Shown here piece by piece: positions 495 to 24,393 of a DNA stretch of 64,000 nucleotides (its first letter is position 1; every line of letters begins with the position of its first letter). The DNA is taken from the IMG/VR virus record IMGVR_UViG_3300028800_000057. One strand, 5' to 3'. The notes under the pieces are model-generated. The model saw only the letters and a program-made list of their open reading frames with translations. It did not search any database and was not told where the DNA came from. This DNA comes from a virus. Taxonomy: Duplodnaviria > Heunggongvirae > Uroviricota > Caudoviricetes. A program made the position numbers and the translations under genes.

Positions 495-1006
495 CCCTCA
501 CGACCCGCTCAGTACTTTACAAGGACGGTAAGCCGTTCGAGCCCTGGACGGGTCAAGTTGATCTGAGTACAACTGGGGGAGAGGTCCACGAGATTGAACT
601 CCCCGAGTGGCTCTCGACTGAGGAGTACTGCAAGACCTACCGCACGTGGAAGTACTTCTGGGGTCTCGGCGCCAATCCTGAGTGGCCCGAGAAGTGGCAA
701 CGTATTTTGGTCAGGAAGGGCTACAGTCCAGCGGATAGGCTCGCGTGCATCCAGCTACTCATGACCAAGAAGTTCAGGAGCAAGTTCCGTAGTGACCTCT
801 GTGCCCAGCTCAAAACCTGGCTGGAAGAGGAGCGTTATCCGCACCCGTTCTCGCCCAAGCAATGGGACAAGCTCGTCAATAAGTATGTGGTCTGGAGGGC
901 CGCCCAACTTGAGACTGCTCTCAATAGGGATCAAAGTTACTACGGGGTGCCCGGGGACAACCTAGAAGTGAAGGTTCTTGTTGAGAATCTGAAGACTCGC
1001 GCGTAA
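491..1006 (+). CDS. hypothetical protein (track ORF 437..1006; likely start at ATG 491 overlapping upstream stop)
   Basis: long ORF, ATGA start/stop overlap. Confidence 0.5.
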   Translation: MTLTTRSVLYKDGKPFEPWTGQVDLSTTGGEVHEIELPEWLSTEEYCKTYRTWKYFWGLGANPEWPEKWQRILVRKGYSPADRLACIQLLMTKKFRSKFRSDLCAQLKTWLEEERYPHPFSPKQWDKLVNKYVVWRAAQLETALNRDQSYYGVPGDNLEVKVLVENLKTRA

Positions 1007-1009
1007 TAG
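978..1009 (+). promoter_or_regulatory. conserved promoter-like motif copy 1 (TTGTTGAG-N15-GCGTAATAG)
   Basis: exact bipartite motif, 6 nt upstream of ATG 1016. Confidence 0.6.
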
Positions 1010-1015
1010 TAGAGT

Positions 1016-1312
1016 ATGGCGACTACCATCTACTTCTACACGAAACTCTGGGAAAACTCTGGCATTCACATAATAAGTACATCCGACAAGCCCGGTAGGG
1101 GAGGTACTCTTCTCATTCGAGGTACTCAGCCGGGTTCATCATACTGCATCCATTTGGGCAAGGACGCCTTCCTGACCATCGAAGAAGCTCGGGCTGATGT
1201 GGCCAAGCGATACGCAAGCGCGGTCAAGTCTGCAGAGAGAAAGCTTGCAAAGCTCCGGGAAATTGATCCGGCTAAGATAGTTCCAATCGAAGACCCTGTT
1301 GAAGAACTCTAG
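1016..1312 (+). CDS. hypothetical small protein
   Basis: ORF directly downstream of motif copy 1; gagtATG leader. Confidence 0.55.
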   Translation: MATTIYFYTKLWENSGIHIISTSDKPGRGGTLLIRGTQPGSSYCIHLGKDAFLTIEEARADVAKRYASAVKSAERKLAKLREIDPAKIVPIEDPVEEL

Positions 1313-1470
1313 GCTGATGAAACCGGCCACCAGGCGCACAAGGAAAGAAACCCATGGTTAAAATACGGTATTGGCCCGACGGAACCCGTCGGTTATATTG
1401 ACCTAGTAGAGGGGAAAATGCAAAACCAGACATGTTGGAGTTTATGGAAAAGCCTACTGCACCTTGATTT

Positions 1471-1502
1471 CAATTGAGATTCGCACTCCTCACGCGTAAT
1501 AC
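1471..1502 (+). promoter_or_regulatory. conserved promoter-like motif copy 2 (cAATTGAG-N15-GCGTAATAc)
   Basis: same spacing; shares 17-mer ACTCCTCACGCGTAATA with copy at 9185-9209. Confidence 0.5.
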
Positions 1503-1524
1503 CTTGTGAAAGGACAACGACCCC

Positions 1525-1728
1525 ATGCAACTAACCCCTTCTTACGGACGCGACTACACCAGCCAGAAAGCTGTTAAAGCTGACTGGGATGCCAACAAGG
1601 ACTTCACAATTGCTGATGTCTTTGGTGGCCAAGCGGGACGTCAGATCAACAAGCAGGATGCCCCAGCGGGTACCTACAACATCCGTTACAAGAAGTTGAC
1701 ACAGGTGTGCGTCATCGTGGTGAAGTGA
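1525..1728 (+). CDS. hypothetical small protein
   Basis: ORF downstream of motif copy 2. Confidence 0.45.
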   Translation: MQLTPSYGRDYTSQKAVKADWDANKDFTIADVFGGQAGRQINKQDAPAGTYNIRYKKLTQVCVIVVK

Positions 1729-2084
1729 TGAGCGCTATAGATCGACTAATCAAGATGGTTCATGGTACTACTCAGACTTCACAGGGTGCGTACGTTCAGC
1801 CTGGAACCTACGCCCCGGGAGAAGTCCCGGGCTATGCATTCTGTGAACCGGTCTATGCCAGTGCCAGTGGGCGCTGGCATATTCGAAAGGTCGAGGGGAG
1901 GCTCTACCTCGGTGGAGGAATCGACACACCTAGCCTATGCGGCAAAGTGAAACCCTTTGGTCCTGAGTATGGTGCGCTCGGAGGTTGGGATCTCAATGTC
2001 AAGATTACGGAACATCACCTTGGGCATTGCTGCCCGGATTGCGTCAAGGCTTACCAGGAGGCCGTCAGTGGAAACTCCAAGTAG
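1707..2084 (+). CDS. hypothetical Cys-containing protein
   Basis: ORF; HCCPDC motif. Confidence 0.45.
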   Translation: MRHRGEVMSAIDRLIKMVHGTTQTSQGAYVQPGTYAPGEVPGYAFCEPVYASASGRWHIRKVEGRLYLGGGIDTPSLCGKVKPFGPEYGALGGWDLNVKITEHHLGHCCPDCVKAYQEAVSGNSK

Positions 2085-2295
2085 TGGTATTCCAGGGAAC
2101 TACAAGTCAAAAGATCCCCGGGGATTCATTAGATTTATTCTGAGTAATCTAGCTCAGAAGTTCAAGGAGTTGGACTCGTCCTTGCAAGCCAATAGTCTAA
2201 ACCCTGGAATTTGTCAGGGTGTCACTGAACTGGCTGCCTTTCTGGAGAAGGAAGCAGCCCGTTTGCGCGGTATCATTCGAGACAACGGAGTGTGA
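2076..2295 (+). CDS. hypothetical protein (track ORF 1957..2295; likely GTG start at 2076 after AGGAGG)
   Basis: AGGAGG 6 nt upstream of GTG; overlaps upstream stop. Confidence 0.35.
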
Positions 2296-2897
2296 CTATG
2301 CCTGACCCAGTTGATAGCCGAGTCTCTAACGTACGAACCATCTTGGTAGGGGTTCTGCATCGAGCCAAGAACATAGAGTCGTTTTTGGCTGGTCAGGAGT
2401 TTGACAAGACCGTGCGTCAGGAGACCCTCCGGACCGCTAACTTCCTAGCTACCGAAGTAGAAAACCTGCGCAAGATAGTTCAGGACTATCACAATACTAA
2501 CAACACCAAGCGGAAGATTGGTGAGTGCTATGACTGTGGGTTTGATCACGATTGGTACATGGTCAAGAACGAGGTTTGGCTTCAAGCGTGGCCAGAGGAC
2601 TACCCCAAGTTGAGGACCAGGCTCATCTTGGAGAATCAGGGGCGACGGGTCTTCGTTAGCCTGTGTTACGAATGCCTTGAGAAACGACTTGGGCGGGTGC
2701 TCACTATCGACGACTTTGACCTCGGGATACCGATAAACAGTGGAGTTAGAATGGGCTTCAAGTTAGGACTACGCGATGAAATGGGATATAGACAAGGCAC
2801 TGGCGACATACGGTCAACCGGGAGTTCTGGTGGAGCACTCAATAGCTCGAATTCTACTAGCCAAGTACCTGTGGAAGCAACACAAGATCAAACCTAA
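2292..2897 (+). CDS. hypothetical zinc-finger protein
   Basis: CYDCG...CYEC Cys pairs. Confidence 0.5.
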   Translation: MTMPDPVDSRVSNVRTILVGVLHRAKNIESFLAGQEFDKTVRQETLRTANFLATEVENLRKIVQDYHNTNNTKRKIGECYDCGFDHDWYMVKNEVWLQAWPEDYPKLRTRLILENQGRRVFVSLCYECLEKRLGRVLTIDDFDLGIPINSGVRMGFKLGLRDEMGYRQGTGDIRSTGSSGGALNSSNSTSQVPVEATQDQT

Positions 2898-3144
2898 ACT
2901 GGATGCTGATTCAAAGGCGGATGCTGTTCTCTGTTGGAGCCTTGGCATCGGTCGTTGGGGGAGTCCCAAGCTGTTTGTTATTGCTCTAACCCTCAGGGAA
3001 GCTCACCTCCGATTGCGCAAAGTTCTCCTAGGTCTTAGTGAGGAGGACCAGCAACGCTATGGGGTTCAGACGCGACCGAGACGCCCCAAGCTTAGTCGGC
3101 GTGAAGCGAAGCGTATTATCAAGAGGCATGCAGTCAAGAAATGA
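2776..3144 (+). CDS. hypothetical basic protein
   Basis: ORF, K/R-rich C-terminus. Confidence 0.4.
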   Translation: MKWDIDKALATYGQPGVLVEHSIARILLAKYLWKQHKIKPKLDADSKADAVLCWSLGIGRWGSPKLFVIALTLREAHLRLRKVLLGLSEEDQQRYGVQTRPRRPKLSRREAKRIIKRHAVKK

Positions 3145-3407
3145 TTGTAGGTTGCTACACCCTCGACTTGTACTGTGACGGGGATCCCGATTGCAAGTAC
3201 TCAGTGAACAGCTCACCTGGTTGTAGCAACATGTCGGCTCAGTTTACTGCTGAGACCGGTGGTGAGTGTCGGCGCCAGGCGCGTGACGAGGGTTGGATTC
3301 TGAATTTAGAAGAGCAAACGACTGTATGTCCGAAATGTGCCAAGAAAGGGTTTCGTCCTGGGCCAGCTCCTGACCCGACAGACCATATTGAAGAAAGTGA
3401 TAAGTAA
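3141..3407 (+). CDS. hypothetical Cys-rich small protein
   Basis: ORF with CPKC. Confidence 0.4.
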   Translation: MIVGCYTLDLYCDGDPDCKYSVNSSPGCSNMSAQFTAETGGECRRQARDEGWILNLEEQTTVCPKCAKKGFRPGPAPDPTDHIEESDK

Positions 3408-3409
3408 TC

Positions 3410-3616
3410 ATGGATCTAGACACGTTCATCAAACAACTTCAGGACCTGAGATCCCAGAAGGGTAATCTGGATGTCTTCTACCTTGTCCACTCCGACACCG
3501 AGCAATATGGGGTTGATTCTGTAGTGGTGGCTACGGCTGATGAGGCCGTCGAGGAAAGGGTAGGTATCAAGGAAGGGACTGAATACATTCTCATTCAGAG
3601 TGAGACAGTCTGGTGA
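3410..3616 (+). CDS. hypothetical small protein
   Basis: ORF. Confidence 0.4.
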   Translation: MDLDTFIKQLQDLRSQKGNLDVFYLVHSDTEQYGVDSVVVATADEAVEERVGIKEGTEYILIQSETVW

Positions 3617-3622
3617 AAATTA

Positions 3623-3654
3623 TTGTTGAGGTTCAACCGGCTCATGCGTAATAG
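3623..3654 (+). promoter_or_regulatory. conserved promoter-like motif copy 3
   Basis: TTGTTGAG-N15-GCGTAATAG exact, 5 nt before ATG 3660. Confidence 0.6.
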
Positions 3655-3659
3655 CTGCC

Positions 3660-4205
3660 ATGGCACTCATTGAGACCCCTATCCATTGGCTTTGGTTGGC
3701 ACGCGGATCCGAGATCAACTTGAATCTCAGTCCAACAGGCCACGCCTTAATGGTACTAGACAACCACGAGAGAAGTATTGGAGAAGGAGGAAGAGTTCCC
3801 CTGAGGGTCCCCCTCATCTGGATTAGCACTAGACCTGAGGCGCATCCTTCGGTCGAAGGGCTCATAATGGGACACTTTCTTCGTCTGCTTGAGCGAGCAC
3901 GTCTGTTTGATCAAGCACGCGTGCTTCAGATGCGCACCCCTCACTTGTACGGGATCTTGAAGTCGAAGGGGCTGCGAGGGGGCGTGAGCAGTGGGGCTGA
4001 TGGATCACCGTTGACCGACTCAGCTGAGCTAGGGTTCGTCTGCTTGAGCCACACCCTATCCAACATCACAGGGTTTACCGTATTGTCACCAGGAAGGGTT
4101 GGTGACCTCTTGCTCCCGCACTATGTACAGGAGAACAACAACGAACCTGACCCCTCAGTGGAAATTACACGAGTGAGTAGGTACGAGAGAAAGTGGGTCA
4201 TCTGA
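3660..4205 (+). CDS. hypothetical protein with C-terminal SRYERKWVI tail
   Basis: ORF after motif copy 3; shared C-terminal motif family. Confidence 0.55.
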   Translation: MALIETPIHWLWLARGSEINLNLSPTGHALMVLDNHERSIGEGGRVPLRVPLIWISTRPEAHPSVEGLIMGHFLRLLERARLFDQARVLQMRTPHLYGILKSKGLRGGVSSGADGSPLTDSAELGFVCLSHTLSNITGFTVLSPGRVGDLLLPHYVQENNNEPDPSVEITRVSRYERKWVI

Positions 4206-4459
4206 TGGCCAAGCGTCGCGCGGGTATGGATAAGAGGCCCGGGATGTCCACATGGGATCATCAGCAAGCTGACAAATGGGTTCAGAAGTTCCTGGTACTC
4301 CTCGCCGAGAAGGGGCATAAGCCCGGGTTTCGATATGGCAAGAGTCTCTACCTGGACATGTTCGAGTTCTTCAGTCTAGTGTCGGCGGCCGTCGGCGGTA
4401 GCCCGATGGAGGTTGCTCTCGGGGTCGCTATCAGTGAACTGACCCGGGTAGAAGACTGA
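4193..4459 (+). CDS. hypothetical protein
   Basis: ORF. Confidence 0.35.
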   Translation: MGHLMAKRRAGMDKRPGMSTWDHQQADKWVQKFLVLLAEKGHKPGFRYGKSLYLDMFEFFSLVSAAVGGSPMEVALGVAISELTRVED

Positions 4460-4676
4460 GGTGGTTGTAGGAGCCGTCGTCGTTGGTGGTCCACCTCTGA
4501 CCCCTTCGACTATGATGAGGCTCCTGATGGTCCTTCTGGAGGCAGCAAGGGTCCATGTAGAAAGTGGCCGAGCACCGAGGATAGTGCTTGAGACAGAGTA
4601 GGCAAAATCCCGTGAAGCCTAATTCTGAGTACTCGTCTCGACACTCATGCTCGGTATGCTCAGGACACTTCATTGA

Positions 4677-4976
4677 CTACCCAGTCTGCTTGCGCTCAAA
4701 CATATTCCAGCTCGGGTCCTGCTCCGAGAGCGCGCGACAGCGCATGGTGGCGGCCAGCATATCAGGGATGGTGCGTGCCATCAAGGAGTCTTTCATTTCC
4801 TCTGGTAGCCCCTGGTACAGGGTGACGATCGATCTTGCCTCAGTTGAATTGACCAAGTAGCCCCTGACATGGGTAGCCTGCCTCAGCGCGACAGCTTCAA
4901 ACTCAACAATGATTTCAGCGTGGTCAGCCTTCGGTGGTAGAATGAATGTCCCTGATATAAAGTCCTTAGCTTCCAT
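4677..4976 (-). CDS. hypothetical protein
   Basis: ORF in minus block. Confidence 0.4.
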   Translation of the reverse strand: MEAKDFISGTFILPPKADHAEIIVEFEAVALRQATHVRGYLVNSTEARSIVTLYQGLPEEMKDSLMARTIPDMLAATMRCRALSEQDPSWNMFERKQTG

Positions 4977-5133
4977 GGTATCCCCTTTTCCCGGATGATA
5001 AGGTAAGTTACGCGCATGGCATAGTCGATCTCAACTACTTTCTTATGAAAAGTACTTCACGAGGCTATAATACTAGGCTCAAGTATCGTCAACCCTAGCA
5101 AGTAACAGGGTTTCTCCTAGGTATATTCAGACA

Positions 5134-5658
5134 CTACCACATGAGAAGATCTGATATCTCTCCAGCTTTCATCATAGCTAAGTTCTTGTTCTTGTAGCGA
5201 TAATCCCCAGTAACCTCCATAGCCCTATCAGCCCAGCGTGGGAGAACGAAGTTCTCGGCTTGCTCGATACTCTGAAACTCTATTTCTAGTAGTATCAGGC
5301 CGTCGAGGGTATCAAGAAAGGTGTCTACCTCGTACTTAGTCACCATCCTATCGGTGGTAAGCACGGTGCGGAGCTTACGCAGTGAGTACTTGCACTTGGG
5401 CCAAAGAGTATCGAATACCCACTGAGGGATCTCGGTCTCCCACTCGGGTCGTTCGAGGTCACCGTCACCCTTGACGGTCATGGTGTGGAGGATTCCGCTG
5501 CTCCGGCGCAACCTAAGTTCAGAGTCTGAGTCTAGGAGGTATCCCTGTTCGATCAGGACTGACTGGCTACCCTGAAGTTCCCCCGGAGCGAACTTCAGTC
5601 GAAACTTCCGCTCTATCTCAGTTCGAATATCTTCAGGTTCTCCGTTGGGCATGCCCAA
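5134..5658 (-). CDS. CYTH-domain protein (triphosphate tunnel metalloenzyme family)
   Basis: N-terminal EIERKF (ExExK) signature and acidic strand pattern typical of CYTH. Confidence 0.55.
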   Translation of the reverse strand: MGMPNGEPEDIRTEIERKFRLKFAPGELQGSQSVLIEQGYLLDSDSELRLRRSSGILHTMTVKGDGDLERPEWETEIPQWVFDTLWPKCKYSLRKLRTVLTTDRMVTKYEVDTFLDTLDGLILLEIEFQSIEQAENFVLPRWADRAMEVTGDYRYKNKNLAMMKAGEISDLLMW

Positions 5659-5679
5659 CGTACACCGAGTTCTCGGGTT

Positions 5680-6459: not shown

Positions 6460-6555
6460 CTTCGAGGATAATATCGTGGTGATGTGCCTATTGCAAGGGA
6501 TATCTGGCTTGGTTACTGGGTCAGATACTTTTAATCTTGGTGCTATATTGAGGTT

Positions 6556-7104: not shown

Positions 7105-7366
7105 CTTATTGATGCGTACATCTTGGGTATGGCAGAGCTTAAGAGTAGCATACCCCCGCCGGTTGAAGCAGTTCGAGGCTTGTACATCAACCCAAAGATC
7201 TCACCCCCGAAGCCTGTGAGGATCATTCCGCAGGTGGCACCGATTGGAGTCAACAAGGCCCCACCGAAGAAGAGTGGTCGCCCCCGACGCTTCAATGCCA
7301 ACTTCAGTTGACGTCTTAGAGATCCCCCGGTACACTAGCCCCACTTTCAATCTGGATTCATTCTAT

Positions 7367-7395
7367 AAGGCTTTCGGAGATAATCCGAAAGCCTT
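7367..7395 (-). terminator. 12-bp stem hairpin (AAGGCTTTCGGA/TCCGAAAGCCTT) immediately 3' of minus gene 7398..7886
   Basis: perfect inverted repeat; no clear U-tract. Confidence 0.4.
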
Positions 7396-7397
7396 AG

Positions 7398-8073: not shown

Positions 8074-8736
8074 TTGTATATGGCTGCAGAGGGCTATTTA
8101 GTTTCAATAAGCCCTAAGTTTTTGGTTGAGAACCACCATGCCTCGCACGTAATATCAAGTGTAAAGAGGTGGGACGTGACTACCAAGATTTTCTCCAGCC
8201 TGATTAGACTTGACAGCTCCACAGCCAAGAACAACTGCCATGAGGTGATGGCTACCCTGCACATCAACTTCTACCGGCAAGAGGCTCATACTAGAACCCT
8301 GACGGTTGATCTAAGGGCCGTCGAAGCGGAGTCTGAGTTCGTCAAGGTCCGTTTCTCGGGTTCGGTCAATCAGCGAGATCGCTCGGTGACTGGGCAGTGC
8401 ACGGATGAGATTCTGCGTTACTGGGGACACATCCCTGAGGTAGCTGAACTCTGTCGGCTCTGGGAGCGCTGGACTAGTAACGACAATAGGCTTGGAACCC
8501 GAGACCAGAATGCCGCTCTCGAAGGTGTGAGTGAGGTTGGTTTTGATGACTACGAGAAGTGGGTCAAGACCTACCTAATCGATGTGGGTCTCTACTGTGA
8601 CCACGGTTACATCTGGGGTTCTGACACTCTCATCGAAATCATACCTTCAGAGATCCTGTCGAAAATTGAGCAGGTGGTCGAGAGACTCAAGACTCTTATG
8701 CCAACCTTTGAGATGAAGGAATGCGTAAATGCCTGA
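8074..8736 (+). CDS. hypothetical protein, paralog of 10785..11336 (WGHIPEVAELCRLWERW motif)
   Basis: shared 17-aa near-identical motif with minus-strand paralog. Confidence 0.55.
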   Translation: MYMAAEGYLVSISPKFLVENHHASHVISSVKRWDVTTKIFSSLIRLDSSTAKNNCHEVMATLHINFYRQEAHTRTLTVDLRAVEAESEFVKVRFSGSVNQRDRSVTGQCTDEILRYWGHIPEVAELCRLWERWTSNDNRLGTRDQNAALEGVSEVGFDDYEKWVKTYLIDVGLYCDHGYIWGSDTLIEIIPSEILSKIEQVVERLKTLMPTFEMKECVNA

Positions 8737-9209: not shown

Positions 9210-9514
9210 TGAACATGATCTACCCAAAGCAACCGAATCAGGAACCAGAAAACTTCTCAAAATGGATGGGCTTCGAAGTCAAACCATCGGAGTACTACCC
9301 GGGCAAGGTATTCGTAGCAACCAACGAGCGTGGGCTAGCCATACTGGAAGCCTGCTATGATGGAATCTACTGGGCGGCCAAGATTCGAATCGATGACAAG
9401 TTCGTTGGTCAGGCCATGTCCATGGATCGCTCGACGGCAAGACGTGAGGCTGAACGAAGGCTTGCTGATGATATGGCCAAGGATCCGGACGCTCTGACCG
9501 TCATGTCTCACTGA
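9209..9514 (+). CDS. small protein with dsRBD-like C-terminal motif (likely ATG start at 9215)
   Basis: G.AMSMDRSTARREAERRLA resembles GxGxSK..AK..AA..AL. Confidence 0.45.
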   Translation: MNMIYPKQPNQEPENFSKWMGFEVKPSEYYPGKVFVATNERGLAILEACYDGIYWAAKIRIDDKFVGQAMSMDRSTARREAERRLADDMAKDPDALTVMSH

Positions 9515-9898: not shown

Positions 9899-10203
9899 GC
9901 GGAGAAGCCAGAAAAGCCTACTTTACCCATGACCCCCAGTTCGATACTTGGTTGGAGAAAACCCTAACAGATGAGGGTACTTACGAGGACAGCGAAGGGT
10001 CCCTCACCGAGTGGTATAACGGGGTCCATTGGAATACTAGGATTCGCATCAAGGGGGACGGTCCTCATATCACCGATGACTTGGTGGCCGAGGGTTGTAG
10101 CGAGGACCGCGCGCTTGCGCGCCAGGAAGCGGAACGTCTTCTGAGGGTGAAGCTTCGGTCCCTCTTGGAAAATGCTGAATCTTTTGGGTTCAGTGATTGT
10201 TGA
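9895..10203 (+). CDS. small protein, tandem paralog with dsRBD-like C-terminal motif
   Basis: AEGCSEDRALARQEAERLL. Confidence 0.45.
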   Translation: MSGEARKAYFTHDPQFDTWLEKTLTDEGTYEDSEGSLTEWYNGVHWNTRIRIKGDGPHITDDLVAEGCSEDRALARQEAERLLRVKLRSLLENAESFGFSDC

Positions 10204-10228
10204 GATCCGCGCCCCTCGCGCGTAATAG
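10197..10228 (+). promoter_or_regulatory. conserved promoter-like motif copy 5
   Basis: TTGTTGAG-N15-GCGTAATAG, gagtATG leader. Confidence 0.6.
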
Positions 10229-10233
10229 AGAGT

Positions 10234-10572
10234 ATGACCTACTCAATCGAAGAACAGAAGCAAATAGCCGAGACCATTCTCAATCAATTGGGTGGGCACA
10301 TCAAACCCATGATTGGTGCCTACAATGTGTTCTCACACGCTGAAGGCGCGCTGTCCTTCCGGTTCAGGTGTCATGCACAGAACCAATCCAATTACTGCAA
10401 GATCACCTTGGTTAACGACACCTACAAGATCGAGTTCAAGTCGATTCGTGGGACCAAGATTACGGACAAGGGTACGTTTGAAGACGTCTATGATGACGTT
10501 CTGAGACCGTTGTTCGAGGGTGAGACTGGTCTGTGCTTGGCATTGCCCGTAGTGCACTTTGCTCGGGCGTAA
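10234..10572 (+). CDS. hypothetical protein
   Basis: ORF after motif copy 5. Confidence 0.5.
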   Translation: MTYSIEEQKQIAETILNQLGGHIKPMIGAYNVFSHAEGALSFRFRCHAQNQSNYCKITLVNDTYKIEFKSIRGTKITDKGTFEDVYDDVLRPLFEGETGLCLALPVVHFARA

Positions 10573-10784: not shown

Positions 10785-11336
10785 TCATGCTCTGAAGTCA
10801 ATCTTCTTGACCAGGGTCCGGATGCGCGCCACAACCTTAGCAGGCATCGGGTCGAATAGCCATGACTTAGCAAACTCGTAGCCCCGGTCAATGAACAAGC
10901 CCTTGCGCTTCAGAAGTTCGCATGCCCAATCGTAGTAATTTGCATCATCAGGTCTAGCTTCCGTAGCCAAGGCGGCCGTTTGCGGACGCGTTCCGGCGAT
11001 GATATCATTCAGATGCCAGCGCTCCCACAGGTCACAGAGTTCGGACACCTCAGGGATGTGACCCCAGATCTCTCGGATTGTTGAGACGCACTGACACGAG
11101 GCGATGTACCCTTTTCGATTCCATACATCACCCACGATGGACAGGGTCAGGATCTTGTTCCGACCTTCTTTTAGGTCAACAGAGCGGCTACCCTTCGTAG
11201 GCTTGTAGGTGAGCTTGACCTTCAGAGTACCTCGAACATCCTCAGGTACTATCTCACTAGCAAAGTGATCAGGTAGGCTGATGGTGACTTCATAGTCTTC
11301 TGATGATTTTGTAGCCATGCCCTGTATTACGTACAA
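10785..11336 (-). CDS. hypothetical protein, paralog of 8074..8736 (WGHIPEVSELCDLWERW)
   Basis: shared motif. Confidence 0.55.
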   Translation of the reverse strand: MYVIQGMATKSSEDYEVTISLPDHFASEIVPEDVRGTLKVKLTYKPTKGSRSVDLKEGRNKILTLSIVGDVWNRKGYIASCQCVSTIREIWGHIPEVSELCDLWERWHLNDIIAGTRPQTAALATEARPDDANYYDWACELLKRKGLFIDRGYEFAKSWLFDPMPAKVVARIRTLVKKIDFRA

Positions 11337-11359
11337 TGGGCACTGATCTCAACAAGAAT

Positions 11360-11699: not shown

Positions 11700-12032
11700 A
11701 TGCCCACCGAAACCGCACGGACCCCCGCTGACTTCGACGCTGCTCTTGAGACTTTCGTCCGTTTGGCCGAGACTAATTCCAACAAGGACAAGTCAGAGCT
11801 CAATCAAGTCACCCTGACCGTCATGCGCGGCCCGCGCTACTGTCGCGTTGTCAGCGCATACACAAATGCTTCGGATCAACGTTCGGTTTTCTGCTTCGTT
11901 GACCGAGATGGGACTATCCTCAAGGCTCACAGTTGGAAGGGTCCTGCAAAGGGCGCGCGGGGTAGCATATTCAACACGGACAAGGGTGCAGCCGCTGTCA
12001 CTCCGTACGGGGCTGTCTACTTCAGACGCTAA
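11700..12032 (+). CDS. hypothetical protein
   Basis: ORF after motif copy 6. Confidence 0.5.
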   Translation: MPTETARTPADFDAALETFVRLAETNSNKDKSELNQVTLTVMRGPRYCRVVSAYTNASDQRSVFCFVDRDGTILKAHSWKGPAKGARGSIFNTDKGAAAVTPYGAVYFRR

Positions 12033-12365: not shown

Positions 12366-12590
12366 ATGCCACGAAGCGACCATGTTGTAATCGAGGGAAG
12401 AGTGACCTCTGCTCTGGGTGGTGGTCAGTATGAGGTCAAGTCCCAGGATGGGTCTGATGCAATTCGGGCTCAACTCTGCGGAAAGATGAAGAAATTCGGC
12501 ATTCGCTTGATCCCTGGTGATGATGTGAAAGTCGAAGTCGCGCCGTCGGACAAGACCCACGGTCTTGTCACTTGGAGAACTAAAAAATGA
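12366..12590 (+). CDS. infA: translation initiation factor IF-1 homolog
   Basis: S1-like 74-aa protein; strong similarity to IF1 pattern (HVVIEGRV..G.Y.V....G....A.L.GKM+K..IR+..GD.V.VE..PYD...G.+..R.K). Confidence 0.8.
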   Translation: MPRSDHVVIEGRVTSALGGGQYEVKSQDGSDAIRAQLCGKMKKFGIRLIPGDDVKVEVAPSDKTHGLVTWRTKK

Positions 12591-14393: not shown

Positions 14394-14723
14394 ATGGATC
14401 AAGAATCAGCTATCCAGGTCTTCCTAGCTAGGTACAAGAATCCATTCATCCTAAATGTCTTGAAATCACACATAAGGACCCCAGCGGGCCGCAACAAGCT
14501 AGCTGCAAGTATGATTCAGCCAGTCAAACTGGCGGTTAGTTACTTGGAGTCAACAAGGAAATCCTTGAGTGACATCGAGTACCCTATGCAGTCGCGCGTG
14601 GATGAGTACCAGCGGTTCATAGCTGCAGTTCCTGAGGATGAGCAGAAGGCTGACCCTTTCCCAGAACTGGAGACTCTTGTCAATAAGCTTGCAGCCCTCA
14701 TCGAAAAGCGTAAATTGGGTTGA
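14394..14723 (+). CDS. hypothetical protein
   Basis: ORF. Confidence 0.45.
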   Translation: MDQESAIQVFLARYKNPFILNVLKSHIRTPAGRNKLAASMIQPVKLAVSYLESTRKSLSDIEYPMQSRVDEYQRFIAAVPEDEQKADPFPELETLVNKLAALIEKRKLG

Positions 14724-14748
14724 GATCCTGAGTATTCATGCGTAATAG
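14717..14748 (+). promoter_or_regulatory. conserved promoter-like motif copy 7
   Basis: gGGTTGAG-N15-GCGTAATAG. Confidence 0.55.
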
Positions 14749-14753
14749 TAGGT

Positions 14754-14999
14754 ATGGCAATCTCAGTTATCGATGGTCCTCTAGTTCAGGCTGAAGGACC
14801 CCATGACCACGAGGGTCTCGGTCGCGAGAGGTTTTGGGACATGACTCCCAAGCAACGTCGAGACAACCTAAGCCGGATCACAGAGCAAGCCAATGCTGGT
14901 GCCCTCCAAGCTCCGGATAAAGAGTTCGCTCGGGGTTGGCTGAGTGAGCTTGAACGCTACCGTCGTCACCATGGCGACCCGCTAGGAGATCCCCAGTGA
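14754..14999 (+). CDS. hypothetical protein
   Basis: ORF after motif copy 7. Confidence 0.5.
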   Translation: MAISVIDGPLVQAEGPHDHEGLGRERFWDMTPKQRRDNLSRITEQANAGALQAPDKEFARGWLSELERYRRHHGDPLGDPQ

Positions 15000-15601: not shown

Positions 15602-15632
15602 TTGTAATATTGGTTGAATTTTCAGATTCTTG

Positions 15633-15664
15633 TTGAGTTATGGCGGGATCCTGCGTAATACATG
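15633..15664 (+). promoter_or_regulatory. conserved promoter-like motif copy 8 (TTGTTGAG-N15-GCGTAATAc) with no long ORF downstream
   Basis: motif; only a 38-codon ORF then an 11-bp-stem hairpin follow. Confidence 0.5.
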
Positions 15665-15855
15665 GCATGACCCGCTGGAATAGAACAGCGAGCTTCTGGC
15701 GGCAAACCAGAGGAATGATTGGAACCGACCCAATCAAGAGTTCAACCCTAACCACGAAAGGACTGTGTGACAGAAAAACTTAGAAAATCGATGAGCACCC
15801 GTGAGGGTGGCCACTGAGGCGGGTGCTCATAACTTACTAGTGCTATGCTGTAGTT

Positions 15856-18396: not shown

Positions 18397-18410
18397 GAAA
18401 AGGTTAAGTC

Positions 18411-18973: not shown

Positions 18974-19214
18974 TGGCTTTTGATTCCTTTCATAGTCTGC
19001 TCTTCAGATCTGCAGGAGCAGATCCATTGCTCTCCTACCTTCATGATGTGTGAAGGCGAGGGGCAACTTTGGGCTATGTCAACCTTGGTAAGAAGCCTCT
19101 CCGTACAACTCGCTGGCATCAGAAAGTTTGGGATCGCTTTCTGATTGTGGCGAAGGAAGATCCCAGCTGCTATTAGGGCAGACCCTAGGATAAATGCAAA
19201 TGCATACCAAGCTT

Positions 19215-19886
19215 TCATTGCTTATTCTTTCTTCTTGTGTGCCTTGTTGGGCTTACTAGGAGTTGCTTGCGCAAGTAGGCATCACACTCGCTCCTAGCTT
19301 CGTTGAGTTCAACTACTGGGTAGTTCTTGGAGCTGAATGCTGACACTATCAGGTGGGAGAACTCTTCGGGGAGCTTGGTTGGGAAGGCGAGCCAGTACCA
19401 CCCTTGGTACTTACCAAACCCTACCCGAAACGGTTTGATCTCTCCGACTACCACCTTGTCATTGAGAAGGAACTTGCCCCCGCACGGAGGGCTCAAGGTC
19501 GTTGACCGGCTCAGGTCAAGGGTATCCTTGACCCATGATAGCCAACGCCGTGGGCCATGCTTGGGCTTGCCTAGGCACTTCCGAACGTAATCTTCACAGT
19601 CGTCCTTGGCCTTCTTCGGGTCCTCTACAGGATGATTGCTGGTGTCCTTCTTTGGGATGTTCCCTTCTTGCTCGGCGATCCAGTACCATCCGTTGAACTG
19701 AACGAAACCTACTCGGAACGGAACAACCCGCGCAACTCTAACCTTCTGGTAGAATAGCTCGAACCCACGCGGGTTGCTCTTGTTCCATACCTCTAGCGGC
19801 TCTAACCGCCAAGCCATGAGCCTAGCTTTTGGCTGTATTCTCATGGGGCGAGTTACACCGTCATCAGGTAGCTGCAGCTTTGGCAC
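19215..19886 (-). CDS. hypothetical protein with internal duplication (PFRVGF..GWYW.A ... DC.DY.RK.L twice)
   Basis: two repeats within ORF. Confidence 0.5.
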   Translation of the reverse strand: MPKLQLPDDGVTRPMRIQPKARLMAWRLEPLEVWNKSNPRGFELFYQKVRVARVVPFRVGFVQFNGWYWIAEQEGNIPKKDTSNHPVEDPKKAKDDCEDYVRKCLGKPKHGPRRWLSWVKDTLDLSRSTTLSPPCGGKFLLNDKVVVGEIKPFRVGFGKYQGWYWLAFPTKLPEEFSHLIVSAFSSKNYPVVELNEARSECDAYLRKQLLVSPTRHTRRKNKQ

Positions 19887-20556
19887 GCATGGATGCGAGA
19901 AGAGCCTGAGCCTTGCTCTTCTGAAGCAAGGCTTCCGGGCTTGATTGCATCCCGCTGACTGCCTGGTTCAGCTCCTCACGGGCGACTGCTGACTTCTGTT
20001 GGGCCGCTTGAAGCGCTCCCCCGAGGTGAGTTGAGTCAACCCCAGTTGTCAGGTCCTGGACCTTCCGGACAGCGTTGAGGGCTTGAGTATCGGCCGTAGC
20101 TTGACTGACAGCTCGTCGAAGTTGCTGCAACTCCCTGACCATTATGGTGTGGCGCTCTTTCAACTTGTCCATGGTCACGGAAAGGAGCCGATGGTTCTCG
20201 AGTAGGGCTGCTTCTTGGGATTTGACGTCCTCTTGCTCTTCTTTCAGCTCGTTGACGTGAGCCGCCATTGGGATCTGGTCATCATCATTGGTGGGGTCCC
20301 CATCGTCCATATTGGCCTGAATAGCAGCCATGAACTCGTCAATGTGTTGCTGGATGGCCGCTACTTGCAGGTGCATGGCCTTGGCGGCCACATCAGCTCT
20401 GATGCACTCAGTGGATTCAGTCTGCATTGCTGCTTCCAACTCACGAATGAGCTGTTCATGCGCAGGGACTGAGTTAGCGTCAATGACCTTATCAAGTACC
20501 GAGTGAGCGCTCGCCTTGACGATCAAGGTTGCTTTCGAGAAAATGCTTAGTGCCAT
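19864..20556 (-). CDS. PspA/IM30 (phage-shock protein A / Vipp1) family coiled-coil protein
   Basis: N-terminus LSIFSKATLIVKASAHSVLDKVID..EQLIRELEAAM parallels PspA [24 protein letters not shown]..., all-helical about 230 aa. Confidence 0.65.
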   Translation of the reverse strand: MALSIFSKATLIVKASAHSVLDKVIDANSVPAHEQLIRELEAAMQTESTECIRADVAAKAMHLQVAAIQQHIDEFMAAIQANMDDGDPTNDDDQIPMAAHVNELKEEQEDVKSQEAALLENHRLLSVTMDKLKERHTIMVRELQQLRRAVSQATADTQALNAVRKVQDLTTGVDSTHLGGALQAAQQKSAVAREELNQAVSGMQSSPEALLQKSKAQALLASMRAKAAAT

Positions 20557-20588
20557 ACTGTTTTGCCTCTTGTTCTGTTGTTGAAGTT

Positions 20589-22580
20589 CTAGTCGTCGCT
20601 TGAGCTTGAATCATTGCTTGAGAAGTCGCTGTCACTTGAGGATGAGCTCGTGTCGACTGACTCACCACCAAATCCACCTCCGTCATCGTCATTGCTGCTG
20701 GTTTGGACTGACTCACCACCCCAACCACCTCGACGATTGTCATCATCGTCATCTGAGCGGCGGCTCTCACGACCACCACCATACCGACGATCCTCGTCTA
20801 GTTCTCGTCGAAGTTCACGATTCTCGGCATTGACTTCGATGTCGTTGAGGGCAAGGCCAAGCCCCAATCCAAGGCCAAGTCCAGAGTCGTCTCGGCCGTA
20901 GTTGTTGACCACTGTAGTGTGGGACACGTGACTGCTGGAGCGACTCGAGCCGCTGCCACCTGAGTAACCCGATGAGGGGCGATACGAGTTAGACGAAGGA
21001 CGTCGAGCATCCGCTAGCCGACGCATCAGTACTTGAACAGCATTGATTGCGTTGTTGATCTCAGACTCAGCAGCTCTAGCTAGTGTGACTTGTTGTTCAG
21101 CTGAGTCCCAGTTCTGAGTAAGAACTCCACTCTTGGCCAGAGCAATTGCTGACTGTCGTGCTTGGGTCCTTTGGATGACCACCGTACGTTGTTCAAGTGC
21201 TGGGAGTTCAGCGCCATCCCCGAAGGTTGTCCTAATTTGGCTGATGAGTGAGTCGAGGGTGACAAGCTTATCCGCTATCACGTACTGGTCGAGCCTGCTG
21301 ATATCCCCTTCGATCCGTTGCTTCCGAGAGTTTAGGTCATATACCTGCTGGGCGGCTCTCCTGGCTAGTATCGTTCCATCTTTGCAAACGTCGGTTACTG
21401 CTTGATATCTCTTCTCTTCCAGGTTCTTCTGGGCTTGCTCGAAGGAAGAGATCGCCTGCTGTAGGATGGCCCGGGGACCATCTACTTTCATGGATCTCTC
21501 TGCATTGATATTATTGGTTGCAATCTCGATTTCCTTAGCTAGGGCGTCGATGGTTGGTTGGGCTGAGTCACGTAGACGACTTATGCCTCGGATGGAGTTG
21601 GAGAGTTTGATAGCCTCGGCATCCACTCTCTCCAAGTTGGCTTGCACCCTTTCAAAGGTTGCAGTCATTGCATTGTAGGCATCAGCACTTAGGCCCACGC
21701 TTTCTGGGTCATTGGCGGAGCCAGTCATATTGACGTACTGACTCTTGGCCGAGTCCATATTGGACTTCAACGCTTCAAGTTGATCTTGTAGGGCCGAGAA
21801 CTCGGCAGGATTGATAGTCGTCTTGAGAGGGGCCAAGAGAACCCCAATGGTGGTCAGGTGGCTTTCAAACCCAGTGATTAGGTTGTTACAGGCGCCCCGA
21901 GTACCCTGAGCTTGTTGCTGAGCCGCGTCACGCTCCGACTTCGCCATTCGATATCGTATGAACAACCAGATCCCAGCCCCGATAACACCGGCAAGGAGCA
22001 GCCATTTCAGGAAGGAGAATCCTCCACTGAGGTCTGCTGGCTTCTCGTTGTGATTGACGATGGTGACAGGACCACTGGAGACAATGGCGTTCGCCTTCGT
22101 TGTCGACAGAAGGGTGTGGGTTCTGATGAGCCCAGCTTTGGCGGCGCCAGTCAGGTCCCCTTTACCAATAAGTCCGCCCATCTCCTCACCAATATCCACA
22201 ATCTTGTTGTGAGTGAGTACATTCTGGAAAGGGCCCTTCTTGGCGAACTGGACCGCAACCTTACCGTTGGGTTCGAGGATCAGCAGGAAGATGTTGCTCT
22301 TGAGGCGCCCGCCAGCTGACTGCCATGAGGGACACTTACTCAACAGAGCACCGGCGTATTTGTCAAGGTTCCCATATCTGTTCATCTCGTCTGTCGTGAT
22401 GACTCGAACGAGGGCTGGGTCCGCACCATCACCGGCGATCTTCCTGAGAAGAGGTTCGATCTCGGAGGCTTTGACTTTCCCTGTTGTATCAAAGACGGGG
22501 CTATTGCACTCGTCTGCAAGCGCCGGGCGCGCTAGGACTAGCACTAAGAGTGCTAGTATCACAGTGATCGATCTGATCAT
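20589..22580 (-). CDS. TPM-domain (YgcG-like) membrane protein with signal peptide, TM helix, long coiled-coil and Gly/Ser/Asp-rich C-terminal tail
   Basis: signal peptide; IFLLILEPNGKVAVQFAKKGPF resembles TPM core; TM GVIGAGIWLFIRY; GLGLGLGLGL and D/S/G tail. Confidence 0.6.
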   Translation of the reverse strand: MIRSITVILALLVLVLARPALADECNSPVFDTTGKVKASEIEPLLRKIAGDGADPALVRVITTDEMNRYGNLDKYAGALLSKCPSWQSAGGRLKSNIFLLILEPNGKVAVQFAKKGPFQNVLTHNKIVDIGEEMGGLIGKGDLTGAAKAGLIRTHTLLSTTKANAIVSSGPVTIVNHNEKPADLSGGFSFLKWLLLAGVIGAGIWLFIRYRMAKSERDAAQQQAQGTRGACNNLITGFESHLTTIGVLLAPLKTTINPAEFSALQDQLEALKSNMDSAKSQYVNMTGSANDPESVGLSADAYNAMTATFERVQANLERVDAEAIKLSNSIRGISRLRDSAQPTIDALAKEIEIATNNINAERSMKVDGPRAILQQAISSFEQAQKNLEEKRYQAVTDVCKDGTILARRAAQQVYDLNSRKQRIEGDISRLDQYVIADKLVTLDSLISQIRTTFGDGAELPALEQRTVVIQRTQARQSAIALAKSGVLTQNWDSAEQQVTLARAAESEINNAINAVQVLMRRLADARRPSSNSYRPSSGYSGGSGSSRSSSHVSHTTVVNNYGRDDSGLGLGLGLGLALNDIEVNAENRELRRELDEDRRYGGGRESRRSDDDDDNRRGGWGGESVQTSSNDDDGGGFGGESVDTSSSSSDSDFSSNDSSSSDD

Positions 22581-22957
22581 ATCTCAATTATGATTGGATT
22601 TACTCCAATCATTCCTTTCTTTGAGTTAACTTTTTTGGCCTTTGGGTGGGTACAATCCGGGCGATGCCCTTCAATCTTTTTGGCCCAGCACAGGTGACAG
22701 ACCATACCCATCGAACTTATTTGGTGAACCCACTCAGGCGGGTTACGCTTGATGGTAGTTGATTCGAAGTACCTCTCGCTCTTCCACTGAGCGGGGTTAT
22801 CGTTCCAAGATACAAGAGCCTTGCGCTCTTTTAGGTCAACCTCGATTACTCGGATCTTCCAGATCCCAAGCTCGGTCTTAGTGGTATGACCCACTTTGCG
22901 CCGGTGACAGTCGTAAATGGTATCCCCGGCTTTGAGACTAGTGAATGAAACAGCCAT
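22577..22957 (-). CDS. hypothetical protein
   Basis: ORF, ATGA overlap with TPM gene. Confidence 0.45.
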   Translation of the reverse strand: MAVSFTSLKAGDTIYDCHRRKVGHTTKTELGIWKIRVIEVDLKERKALVSWNDNPAQWKSERYFESTTIKRNPPEWVHQISSMGMVCHLCWAKKIEGHRPDCTHPKAKKVNSKKGMIGVNPIIIEI

Positions 22958-22959
22958 GG

Positions 22960-23466
22960 TTACTTCGTAGTGAGGTACTGGTAAACTCGGTATGGGATCT
23001 CGCAGGCTACTTCGCCATGCTGATCACAGATTTGGACCTTGCTGTTTCGTAGGGCCACGGGTTTACCAACGGGGATCATGATGGTCCAGGTATCTTCCAT
23101 GTCATTTAGCAAGTCCTCAAGTATCTGTTGAGGAGTCACATTCTTGGTCACCTTGCGCTTTGATGTCTTCTTGGGCGACTTTTTGGTTTTGGTGGGTGGG
23201 AAGGTCAGTTGTGGGATTGGCAGGTTAGCGTGAAGGCTACCGATTACCCTCTCCACAATGAGTTGGGCCCGACCTCTATCAGCGTACGTATCTGGCATGA
23301 CCGGGTGCTTACTTGAGTCAGAGTTGAGTACTTCCCTAGATCCCTTGAAGTACTCAACAAACCACCCGTGTCGCTTTTCAGTCGGCTCCCAGAGGGAAGC
23401 TTGGTACTCACCGATCAGCATCAAGATCTTGTTGCCTTGCTGGGTTACTGCAATCGCTTTATCCAT
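22960..23466 (-). CDS. hypothetical protein
   Basis: ORF. Confidence 0.45.
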   Translation of the reverse strand: MDKAIAVTQQGNKILMLIGEYQASLWEPTEKRHGWFVEYFKGSREVLNSDSSKHPVMPDTYADRGRAQLIVERVIGSLHANLPIPQLTFPPTKTKKSPKKTSKRKVTKNVTPQQILEDLLNDMEDTWTIMIPVGKPVALRNSKVQICDQHGEVACEIPYRVYQYLTTK

Positions 23467-23477
23467 TCCTCATATCC

Positions 23478-23687
23478 TTATCGGGCGTTCGTTCTACAGT
23501 ATTCGGTTCTGGCGTACATCTCGAAGCTACCGTTCAGGTGCAACGTCTCAGGTTCTAATTGAGCAGTACATACTCGACCTGATGACTTATTTGGGCACTC
23601 TGGGGCGCAAAATTGTCCTTGGGTTACAACTGAAGTGGATAGGGTGAGTCTCTTACGGGGTGGGGCTTGCTTGGGGAGTACTGACAT
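23478..23687 (-). CDS. small Cys-rich protein, YLRTEYC family member 3
   Basis: CAPEC...GRVC...EMYARTEYCRTNA. Confidence 0.4.
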   Translation of the reverse strand: MSVLPKQAPPRKRLTLSTSVVTQGQFCAPECPNKSSGRVCTAQLEPETLHLNGSFEMYARTEYCRTNAR

Positions 23688-23997
23688 TTTCGGCTCGCTG
23701 GATGTAGAGAGGGGTGTGTTCTTGGCCGATCAGAATACCCCACCGGTCACTGACCTCGTTCACGAAGGCAACCCAATCGTTTAGGGTTGGACCACTTTCA
23801 GGGTGGCGCGTGCATGCCTCTGGGTGCTTGACTGTACTATCGTCATTGGCTACCGCTACATACTCTCTGGAGACTGGGCAAAATCGTGCAACACAGACCC
23901 CTAAGTTCACCCAAACAGTTCGGCCATCCGAGGATATCTCGCCACAATCGTCTGGAAGTATTGTCCTAATCAGTTTTCTCCTACTCTTAAAGTCCAT
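23653..23997 (-). CDS. hypothetical protein
   Basis: ORF. Confidence 0.4.
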   Translation of the reverse strand: MDFKSRRKLIRTILPDDCGEISSDGRTVWVNLGVCVARFCPVSREYVAVANDDSTVKHPEACTRHPESGPTLNDWVAFVNEVSDRWGILIGQEHTPLYIQRAENVSTPQASPTP

Positions 23998-24076
23998 CGA
24001 TTATCCTTTACCCTCAACTTCCATCTACTCGAAACACAATAGAGCACAAATTCTGTCCTGATGATAGTGGCTCTCT

Positions 24077-24355
24077 TTATTTTCTTTGACCCACTACCCA
24101 AACCAAGCCAACAGCGAGTCGGTGCTTGCATTTGTGACCACTTTTGCTATCTGGGCAGGTACACGTTGAGGTTCTTGTCGCCGGATCAGCATAGACATAG
24201 TAAGTATCCGTACCTCCAGTGACTTCCCACGTCAGGTCACCTATCGGTTTGACTGTGCCTACTAGGCCAACGGCCCTGGATATCCTGGTCGCCAGGCTTG
24301 GGTGGGTCCGAGCCCAAATGCCAGCTAGTCTTTCAATGGCTTGGGTGCGATCCAT
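24077..24355 (-). CDS. SWIM zinc-finger protein
   Basis: CTCPDSKSGHKCKH = CxCxnCxH. Confidence 0.55.
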   Translation of the reverse strand: MDRTQAIERLAGIWARTHPSLATRISRAVGLVGTVKPIGDLTWEVTGGTDTYYVYADPATRTSTCTCPDSKSGHKCKHRLAVGLVWVVGQRK

Positions 24356-24361
24356 ACTCGC

Positions 24362-24393
24362 TATTACGCGCTGGCGTAATGAATCTCAACAAG
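24362..24393 (-). promoter_or_regulatory. conserved promoter-like motif copy 9 on minus strand (TTGTTGAG-N15-GCGTAATAG, cgagtATG leader)
   Basis: reverse complement exact, drives SWIM gene. Confidence 0.6.

Follow-up and report, generated by a model that had tools for sequence, protein, structure and literature searches.

In Deinococcus, a −10 motif lying 6–7 bp upstream of open reading frames (ORFs) has been experimentally demonstrated to drive leaderless genes beside genes of the GGAG type, an arrangement that is widespread in Deinococcus-Thermus (PMC12340547), and the classical phage case is the Thermus phage phiYS40 (Sevostyanova et al. 2007, cited there). Here, we analyze a 64-kb stretch of DNA from a virus of the Caudoviricetes (64,000 nt of IMG/VR record IMGVR_UViG_3300028800_000057, hereafter the window), in which a bipartite motif, GTTGAGA followed after 15–16 nt by (G)CGTAATA, is repeated ahead of start codons on both strands (class I), and in which a shorter motif, GGTGTA, holds a comparable position elsewhere (class II). 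The 2007 study of phiYS40 is said to have described temporal promoter classes, with mostly leaderless middle and late transcripts. As in Deinococcus-Thermus and phiYS40, the window presents a −10 element 5–7 bp from the start codon, coexisting with genes that have GGAG-type Shine-Dalgarno sequences, and a −35 box added at ∼17 bp makes for a stronger class. The elements themselves differ, however, in that the −10 element is here GCGTAATA or GGTGTA rather than TANNNT, with no T at position −7, and the −35 element is GTTGAGA. Furthermore, while phiYS40 has been described as using the host sigma-A, the phage studied here appears to supply its own sigma factors.

Promoters of extracytoplasmic function (ECF) sigma factors keep close to their consensus, with spacers of 14–17 bp, an "AAC" in the −35 element and a −10 element that often contains CGT; that of Bacillus subtilis sigma-W, TGAAAC-N16-CGTA, consists of two short conserved blocks, with CGTA beginning the −10 element (PMC5758882). 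The class I motif shares this two-block construction and its CGTA, its 15–16 bp spacer falls within the ECF range, its adherence to the consensus is close, and candidate ECF-like sigma factors are encoded nearby. Unlike in ECF systems, its −35 element lacks the AAC, no copy precedes the sigma genes, no anti-sigma factor was identified, the first of the two sigma factors carries an HNH insertion, and the regulon would comprise phage genes with leaderless starts. Sigma cascades of phages are familiar from SPO1 (gp28 and gp33/34), T4 (gp55) and phiEco32 (gp36). The present locus is unlike these in its consensus, in its tandem pair of ECF-like sigma factors and in a transcription start predicted to fall systematically on the start codon, and its sigma–promoter pairs are only candidates. 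Finally, T4-type phages reportedly contain "promoter-early stem-loop" (PeSL) cassettes, said to have been described by Arbiol and colleagues in 2010. The class I copies resemble these as repeated promoters beside small ORFs in a plastic region, with rearrangement and mosaic breakpoints at the promoters; they are unlike them in promoter type, in that no conserved stem-loop was found, and in that recombination is here deduced from a single pairwise comparison.

According to the AR9 paper (PMC5312081), leaderless transcripts are common in phages, and huge phages have been described that encode IF1, IF3, ribosomal proteins and sigma factors, with a "redirection of translation" being proposed, in a study that gives no cis-elements and does not mention leaderless transcripts (Al-Shayeb et al. 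2020). Our literature searches with the motif strings returned only primer noise, and those combining "leaderless" with huge or jumbo phages returned nothing relevant. What is new here is the consensus, the phage clade and the unusual ECF-like sigma pair, the principle itself being already known. The window belongs to a clade of uncultivated huge phages (200–500 kb), since JGI, ENA and Logan assemblies contain a 443,068-bp contig with its proteins, and homologues of its sigma-like protein lie on contigs of 230–512 kb; neither INPHARED phages nor PLSDB plasmids gave a nucleotide or protein match to it. Metagenomes are the source of almost everything known about huge phages, whose programme of gene expression is essentially unmapped. 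Two promoter consensus sequences would provide concrete, testable cis-elements for one clade of them.

The Class I Motif and Its Copies

With up to 3 mismatches allowed, the pattern TTGTTGAG-N15-GCGTAATAG has 10 matches in the window, whereas dinucleotide-preserving shuffles contain 0.05 on average and never more than 1. These matches lie at 978, 3623, 9178, 10197, 11663, 14717 and 15630 on the + strand, and at 11324–11355, 24361–24392 and 31015–31046 on the − strand. Inspection of their context, together with a listing of all CGTAATA heptamers, brings the total for GTTGAGA-N15/16-(G)CGTAATA to 12 copies, with one more that is degenerate. The genuine copy at 1471 is more diverged (CAATTGAG...GCGTAATAC), and those at 8123–8155 (16-nt spacer) and 5006–5037 on the − strand (degenerate, GTTGAGA-N16-CGTAACT) had escaped an earlier note on this DNA, which reported ten copies with invariant spacing. 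The motif of that note thus stands, while its count becomes 12, or 13 with the degenerate copy; most of its positions stand as well, apart from shifts of 1–3 nt (15630 instead of 15633, and 24361–24392 instead of 24362–24393); and its invariant spacing nearly does, as the spacer is N15 in 11 copies of the window but N16 in one, and N15 in 39 but N16 in 10 of the 49 copies of the wider family discussed below. We also recover the 17-mer that it had noticed in two copies (ACTCCTCACGCGTAATA, at 1471 and 9178), and a scan of the window with a matrix built from the copies yields no further position above the reporting threshold. Of the 14 CGTAATA heptamers in the window, 12 have GTTGAGA/G/T 15–16 nt upstream.

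All copies are confined to 1–31 kb of the window, and all 13 point at the start of an adjacent ORF, on either strand. The stop codon of the upstream ORF is overlapped by 4 copies, and the ORF at 437–1006, upstream of the copy at 978, ends at a TAA within the −10 box. RNAalifold predicts no base pairs, and thus no common RNA structure, for the aligned copies, and the motif blocks have no dyad symmetry. The sites are as follows, with the distance in nucleotides being that between TAATA(G/C) and the start codon; L022 is the locus of IMGVR_UViG_3300037067_006016, which is syntenic with window positions 1.5–15.4 kb at ∼76% nucleotide identity, and other L numbers denote further loci.

978–1018, + strand: class I site, TTGTTGAGA-N14-GCGTAATAG, 6 nt, ATG at 1016, 98-aa ORF
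1471–1527, + strand: class I site, CAATTGAGA...GCGTAATAC, 22-nt leader with AAAGGA, ATG at 1525
3623–3662, + strand: class I site, 5 nt, ATG at 3660, 181 aa; occupies the entire 43-nt intergenic gap
5006–5037, − strand: degenerate class I site, GTTGAGA-N16-CGTAACT, leadered (AAAAGGGGA), gene start at 4976
8123–8178, + strand: class I site with 16-nt spacer, leader with AAAGAGGTG, GTG at 8176; kept in L022
9178–9217, + strand: class I site, 5 nt, ATG at 9215; upstream ORF stops at a TGA in the −35 box
10197–10236, + strand: class I site, 5 nt, ATG at 10234; left edge of a segment inverted in L022
11316–11355, − strand: class I site, ACGTAATAC, 5 nt, ATG at 11318; right edge of the inverted segment
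11663–11702, + strand: class I site, 5 nt, ATG at 11700; putative operon takes in an IF1 homologue
14717–14756, + strand: class I site, 5 nt, ATG at 14754; upstream ORF stops at a TGA in the −35 box
15630–15831, + strand: class I site, 5 nt, ATG at 15667, 38-codon ORF, then a strong hairpin at 15791–15831
24353–24392, − strand: class I site, 5 nt, ATG at 24355, 92 aa; back to back with a + strand class II site
31006–31046, − strand: class I site, TCGTTGAGA...GCGTAATAC, 6 nt, GTG at 31008, 54 aa

In 10 of the 12 window copies, the start codon follows TAATA(G/C) after 5–6 nt (5 nt as a rule, 6 nt at 978 and 31008), and it is an ATG except for the GTG at 31008. The earlier note, in placing the copies 5–25 nt upstream of a start codon, was correct but understated this regularity, and the conserved GAGTATG that it took for a leader is not one, but consists of the ATG and the nucleotides that separate it from the −10 box. 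Each motif-adjacent start is the first possible start of its ORF (38–181 aa). The exceptions to the short distance are the copies at 1471 and 8123 and the degenerate copy at 5037(−), which have 20–30 nt to the start codon (leaders of 20–23 nt in the first two) and AAAGGA, AAAGAGGTG or AAAAGGGGA as a Shine-Dalgarno sequence; the leadered form of the copy at 1471 is kept in L022 and L130. Shine-Dalgarno-like words are found upstream of only 2 of 11 motif-adjacent genes, compared to 21 of 44 other ATG-start genes and 18% of random positions, and an unbiased count of hexamers 11–18 nt upstream of first ATGs is topped by CGTAAT/TAATAG/GTAATA, GGTGTA and AAAGGA. Reading CGTAATA/TAATAS as a −10 element, with the usual 6–7 nt to the transcription start, would place position +1 on the A of the ATG, and the resulting mRNAs would thus be leaderless. 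The motif is very probably a promoter, a reading that is well supported by its position, its orientation, its tolerance of ±1 nt in the spacer and its conservation in relatives, and the geometry makes it quite probable that these promoters yield leaderless transcripts.

That the motif-adjacent ATG is the true start is indicated by its being the first start of the ORF, and by the fact that substitutions of the synonymous type begin there in orthologue pairs, whose upstream homology is either lost or of promoter character. The gene at 3660–4205(+) is annotated publicly on the 443-kb contig with 151 aa, compared to 181 aa from the promoter-adjacent ATG; it appears that leaderless starts in these phages are placed wrongly by standard gene finders. 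The copy at 15630 precedes a 38-codon ORF only, which bears out the earlier observation of a copy with no long ORF. The hairpin at 15791–15831 has a 12-bp stem, and the 194-nt RNA after this promoter folds with z = −3.65, with either a small protein or a structured/small RNA being a possible product.

Exact-pattern scans of IMG/VR and JGI metagenomes recovered multiple copies of the motif on related contigs, including IMGVR_UViG_3300037067_006016 and _010056, 3300038415_000126 and _000117, 3300028654_000001 (512 kb), and Ga0265330_10001592, which has 8 copies in 13 kb. Outside the window, an ATG lies exactly 6 nt after CGTAATA in 48 of 88 distinct copies from GC-similar loci, compared to 1 of 62 chance matches in loci of other GC content, and the ORF beginning at the motif-adjacent ATG is at least 40 aa long in 51 of 55 cases. 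Across all GC-matched loci, 61 of 97 copies have the −10-like box 5–7 bp before a start codon with no intervening Shine-Dalgarno sequence. Family copies with no adjacent ATG mostly have a Shine-Dalgarno sequence and a start codon 15–21 nt downstream, a distribution of leaders that would be expected if transcription starts ∼6 nt after the box. When IMG/VR was searched with the −10 half alone (CTCGCGCGTAATA-N6-ATG), all family copies found carried GTTGAG upstream, and none carried another −35 box. The family consensus, derived from 49 copies, is tt.GTTGAGAtc-(N)-cCTCGyGCGTAATA-c.rGgy-ATG. Between orthologous promoters of the window and L022, the boxes are kept and the spacer diverges and can gain a base, and from the ATG on the differences fall mainly at third codon positions. 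We also note two sites on unrelated-looking IMG/VR contigs, at 370(−) in L050 and 3855(+) in L105, where GTTGAGATCCAAGCAACTGAAGCGTAATA is followed by GAGGAGG and an ATG; these may be due to chance, or another phage lineage may possess the motif in a leadered form.

The genes driven by class I sites are nearly all small and unannotated. One exception is the following homologue of translation initiation factor IF1:

12366–12590, + strand: IF1 homologue matching PF01176, 74 aa; situated downstream of the 11663 promoter, with AAAGGA before the gene

This gene apparently lies within the operon of the 11663 promoter. Its product is divergent, with at most 48% identity to cellular IF1, and the best cellular matches at this level are spread over Patescibacteria, Gammaproteobacteria and others, making it uninformative with regard to the host. 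A functional tie between this phage IF1 and leaderless initiation would be speculation.

Class II Sites and the Candidate Sigma Genes

Across the rest of the window, a second class of sites consists of GGTGTA (occasionally GGCGTA) with an ATG 9–10 nt later, at 24398, 27138, 29014, 31078, 37641, 41189(−), 41225, 46592(−), 49358(−), 56701(−), 58710(−) and 60672. The following serve to illustrate their arrangement:

24398–24416, + strand: class II site, GGTGTA-N10-ATG, 126 aa
27138–27156, + strand: class II site, GGTGTA-N10-ATG, 230 aa
29014–29033, + strand: class II site, GGTGTAATAG, ATG 11 nt after GGTGTA
31078–31096, + strand: class II site, GGTGTA-N10-ATG, 429-aa DNA methyltransferase
41171–41243, both strands: divergent class II pair, GGTGTA(−) to ATG at 41173 and GGCGTA(+) to ATG at 41241
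46574–46592, − strand: class II site, GGTGTA-N10-ATG
49340–49358, − strand: class II site, GGTGTA-N10-ATG, 306 aa; palindrome at 49364–49393 just upstream
56683–56701, − strand: class II site, GGTGTA-N10-ATG
60672–60689, + strand: class II site, GGTGTA-N9-GTG, 445-aa DNA methyltransferase

An ATG is found at offset 10 from GGTGTA in 9 of 38 occurrences in the window, compared to ∼0.6 expected, and at offsets 9–10 from GYGTA in 25 of 165 occurrences, compared to ∼2.5 expected per offset. Class II shares with class I both the GYGTA sequence and the distance to the ATG, and no fixed −35 element was found upstream of the class II sites of the window. In 197 kb around the sigma genes of 10 relatives (the L188–L198 loci, with GC contents of 48–64% and sigma identities of 36–77%), no hexamer ahead of first ATGs is enriched as strongly as GGTGTA (38-fold), and one-mismatch controls give no peak; this enrichment does not depend on motif-selected sequences, and class II occurs clade-wide. 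As a separate observation, the window contains two perfect palindromes with 11-bp arms that differ in sequence, at 41195–41222 and 49364–49393. The former lies between divergent class II promoters, and the latter has GGTGTA on both strands around it, with an ORF start being shown for the − strand copy only. Both lie at about the −35 position, and could be operators, bidirectional insulators or terminators.

The candidate sigma factors and the promoter ahead of them are as follows:

58678–58707, + strand: canonical-type promoter, TTGACA-N18-TAATAC, upstream of the sigma operon
58780–59889, + strand: ECF-like sigma 1, with a C-terminal helix-turn-helix in addition to sigma region 2 and an HNH/Zn insert
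59916–60680, + strand: ECF-like sigma 2, assigned at fold level only; always adjacent to sigma 1 in the clade

The two sigma-like proteins that the earlier note had placed at 58759–60680 (genes at 58780–60680) can be upheld at the level of predicted fold, with the structure models having a predicted local distance difference test score (pLDDT) of ∼78. The insert of sigma 1 (approximately residues 114–214) is an HNH/zinc domain of the ZRANB3 type, situated between segments resembling regions 2.2 and 2.4, and it seems to be missing or diverged in the most distant relatives (L196–L198). Both sigma genes are adjacent in 11 of 11 IMG/VR relatives, in most cases followed by a methyltransferase gene, and preceded by a divergent gene. 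The presence or absence of sigma 2 was considered as a correlate of class I sites and discarded, as both sigma factors occur in every relative. No relative of the sigma factor was found in GTDB genomes. In the window as well as in 8 relatives (L188–L195, ∼60–110 nt upstream), a conserved TTGAC(A/G)-N18-TAnnnn sequence precedes the sigma genes. Other intergenic candidates lie at 7308(+), 46594(+), 63488(+), 46133(−) and 5092(−). A direct repeat, TAGGTAGAG, is found downstream of the TTGACA promoter and ahead of the start of sigma 1, its two units (58721–58729 and 58741–58749) being spaced by 20 nt.

Proposed Mechanism and Rival Explanations

Taken together, these observations are best explained by a bipartite promoter read by a bacterial core RNA polymerase with a factor of the sigma-70 family, a scheme of promoter, leaderless transcripts and phage-sigma middle regulon that we favor as a whole, with some reserve. 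In this scheme, GTTGAGA would be the −35 element and (cCTCGy)GCGTAATA, 15–16 bp downstream, an extended −10 element, with transcription starting 6 nt after CGTAATA, on the A of the ATG or no more than one base away from it. The genes that head these short operons would thus mostly give leaderless mRNAs, recognized by ribosomes through the 5′-terminal AUG, and downstream genes and a minority of first genes would use ordinary AAGGA/GGAG Shine-Dalgarno sequences. The sigma operon would be transcribed first, by the host primary sigma factor from its canonical TTGACA-type promoter; one of the two phage ECF-like sigma factors (58780–60680) would be the specificity factor, and the phage sigma factor(s) would then direct transcription from class I and class II sites. 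Class I would form a "middle" regulon of small genes of unassigned function plus the IF1 homologue, and class II, with its −10 element only (GGTGTA-N9/10-ATG), would serve the remainder of the region. A promoter of the T7 type is one contiguous conserved block of ∼20 bp that spans the start site, with no variable spacer. The two blocks with a non-conserved spacer of variable length speak against a promoter for a single-subunit polymerase of this type, and this two-block form, with its tolerance of ±1 nt, favors a sigma-dependent promoter.

Whether a phage sigma or the host primary sigma reads class I is in our view about an even chance, with the polymerase, the sigma factor and the timing all being deduced. 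The motif is a poor primary-sigma promoter, because any register of the −10 element lacks either A(−11) or T(−7): taking TAATAS as the hexamer, position −7 is G in 14, C in 26, T in 5 and A in 4 of 49 copies, although it is the best-conserved contact of a primary-sigma −10 element, and the alternative registers are without A(−11). The invariant GCG before TAATA and the CT five bases further up are in no primary-sigma consensus, and position 5 of the −35 element is always G and never C, while the promoter of the sigma genes has TTGAC(A/G). A generic sigma-70 consensus scan returns 18 sites compared to 14.9 expected, which is no enrichment, and catches the motif only in a shifted register. A specialized recognition factor is plausible in view of the missing T(−7), the ECF-like CGTA and a −35 element that is always TTGAGA and never TTGACA. 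The dedicated transcription factor or phage-modified polymerase that the earlier note proposed for an early/middle regulon is to this extent supported, but "middle" would be the better term than early, because the sigma operon has a canonical TTGACA-type promoter.

Several points weigh against this scheme. The −35 box is without the AAC that is typical of ECF promoters, and no class I or class II motif faces the sigma genes, such that the usual ECF autoregulation is absent. Class I occurs in the 512-kb relative whose sigma 1 is just 42% identical, which would also fit a conserved host factor, and the host primary sigma could have unusual −10 preferences. The transcription start point is derived from geometry, the capacity of the host to translate leaderless mRNA is assumed, and one copy has a GTG (31008), a codon that serves poorly for leaderless initiation in E. 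coli. Among the copies of the relatives, a few precede no ORF (5010 and 5556 in L043, 4420 in L128), and a hairpin directly follows the copies at 247 in L225 and 1055 in L093; the ORF-less copies may produce small RNAs, and tRNA scans of the relatives found nothing downstream of them. Furthermore, as both boxes formed part of the pattern used to search for relatives, their invariance there is partly by construction, although that pattern included neither the flanking preferences nor the ATG offset.

The rival that we take most seriously, while still considering it unlikely, is that class I sites are strong early promoters for the host primary sigma (sigma-A/sigma-70), with TTGAGA, a 17-bp spacer and TAATA(G/C), and with transcripts that are still leaderless, the extra conservation reflecting either what is optimal in the host itself or a selective advantage of very strong promoters. 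TTGAGA differs from TTGACA at just 1 of 6 positions, with a spacer of 17–18 bp in this register; the regulon comprises many small ORFs, as in typical phage early regions; the motif persists in the phage with the 42%-identical sigma 1; and the window's own sigma-operon promoter has a similar −10 element, TAATAC. It is the free choice of base at the T(−7)-equivalent position, the invariant GCG-TAATA and upstream CT that are foreign to the primary-sigma consensus, the constant G in the −35 element and the unenriched generic scan that stand against this reading. By comparison, we give very little credence to the motif acting in RNA, as a Shine-Dalgarno-independent initiation or processing signal in polycistronic transcripts (for example through the phage IF1). 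The −10-like block does lie exactly at the place of a Shine-Dalgarno sequence, 5–6 nt before the ATG, several copies lie within co-directional gene arrays with no terminator ahead, and the phage carries an IF1 homologue. However, the two blocks are separated by a spacer that varies in sequence and by ±1 nt in length, with no predicted or covarying structure; some copies precede no ORF; and divergent copies face apart as promoters do (24361–24414). Moreover, the leadered copies keep the motif and add a Shine-Dalgarno sequence 8–11 nt further on, so that the motif lacks the tie to the start codon that would be expected of a ribosome site.

It is equally improbable that the repeats are chiefly recombination or mobility cassettes, or sites for a DNA-binding regulator, with promoter activity being secondary, even though homology to relatives breaks exactly at the motifs. 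The segment 10199–11358, which is flanked by two inverted class I copies, is inverted in L022 (1950–3125), where two identical inverted copies are found at 1564(+) and 3119(−). The copies at 10197 in the window and 1951 in L022 share the promoter and the downstream gene only, and the pairs 978 in the window/667 in L128 and 11355 in the window/1564 in L022 share the upstream flank and promoter only. As homology limits and the inversion fall at the promoters, the repeats also act as recombination boundaries, as expected of dispersed 40-bp identities; yet exchange between such repeats is the expected by-product of repeated promoters, and a primary role in recombination leaves unexplained why the copies are so strictly oriented toward ORFs, why their distance to the ATG is fixed and why two blocks are conserved around a free spacer, while a dimeric regulator would need the dyad symmetry that is absent.

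Returning to promoters read by a phage sigma factor, this reading would provide a first concrete and testable expression logic for a huge-phage clade, with a predicted order of host-type promoter, phage sigma factors, and then class I and class II sites, and with operon-first genes predicted to be translated with no Shine-Dalgarno sequence. In practical terms, gene callers appear to misplace such starts, and the repeated promoters mark recombination breakpoints. A more far-reaching version, which we put forward as a speculative and rather doubtful extension, is a clade-wide shift of operon-first genes to leaderless mRNAs, in which the sigma pair would guide the host polymerase to the two GYGTA classes and the divergent phage IF1, being made from a class I site itself, would make host ribosomes favor initiation at a 5′ AUG (70S-type). 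If true, phage messages would be set apart from Shine-Dalgarno-dependent host messages in both transcription and translation.

Other Features of the Window

An Rfam scan of the window returned one tRNA only and, at the gathering threshold, no Y-RNA-like family. The tRNA, at 48349–48421(+), has the anticodon CUA, that of an amber suppressor, and is labeled tRNA-Pyl by ARAGORN. Stop-codon recoding, which this anticodon brought to mind, was considered but is not evident in the window, as TAG ends 24 predicted genes and read-through merges few ORFs, with no meaningful effect. The tRNA overlaps by its end with the final base of a 306-aa gene encoded on the other strand (48422–49342), and a Ro60/TROVE protein with a vWA domain (PHROG 850) is encoded ∼1 kb from the suppressor tRNA, at 49481–51118(+).

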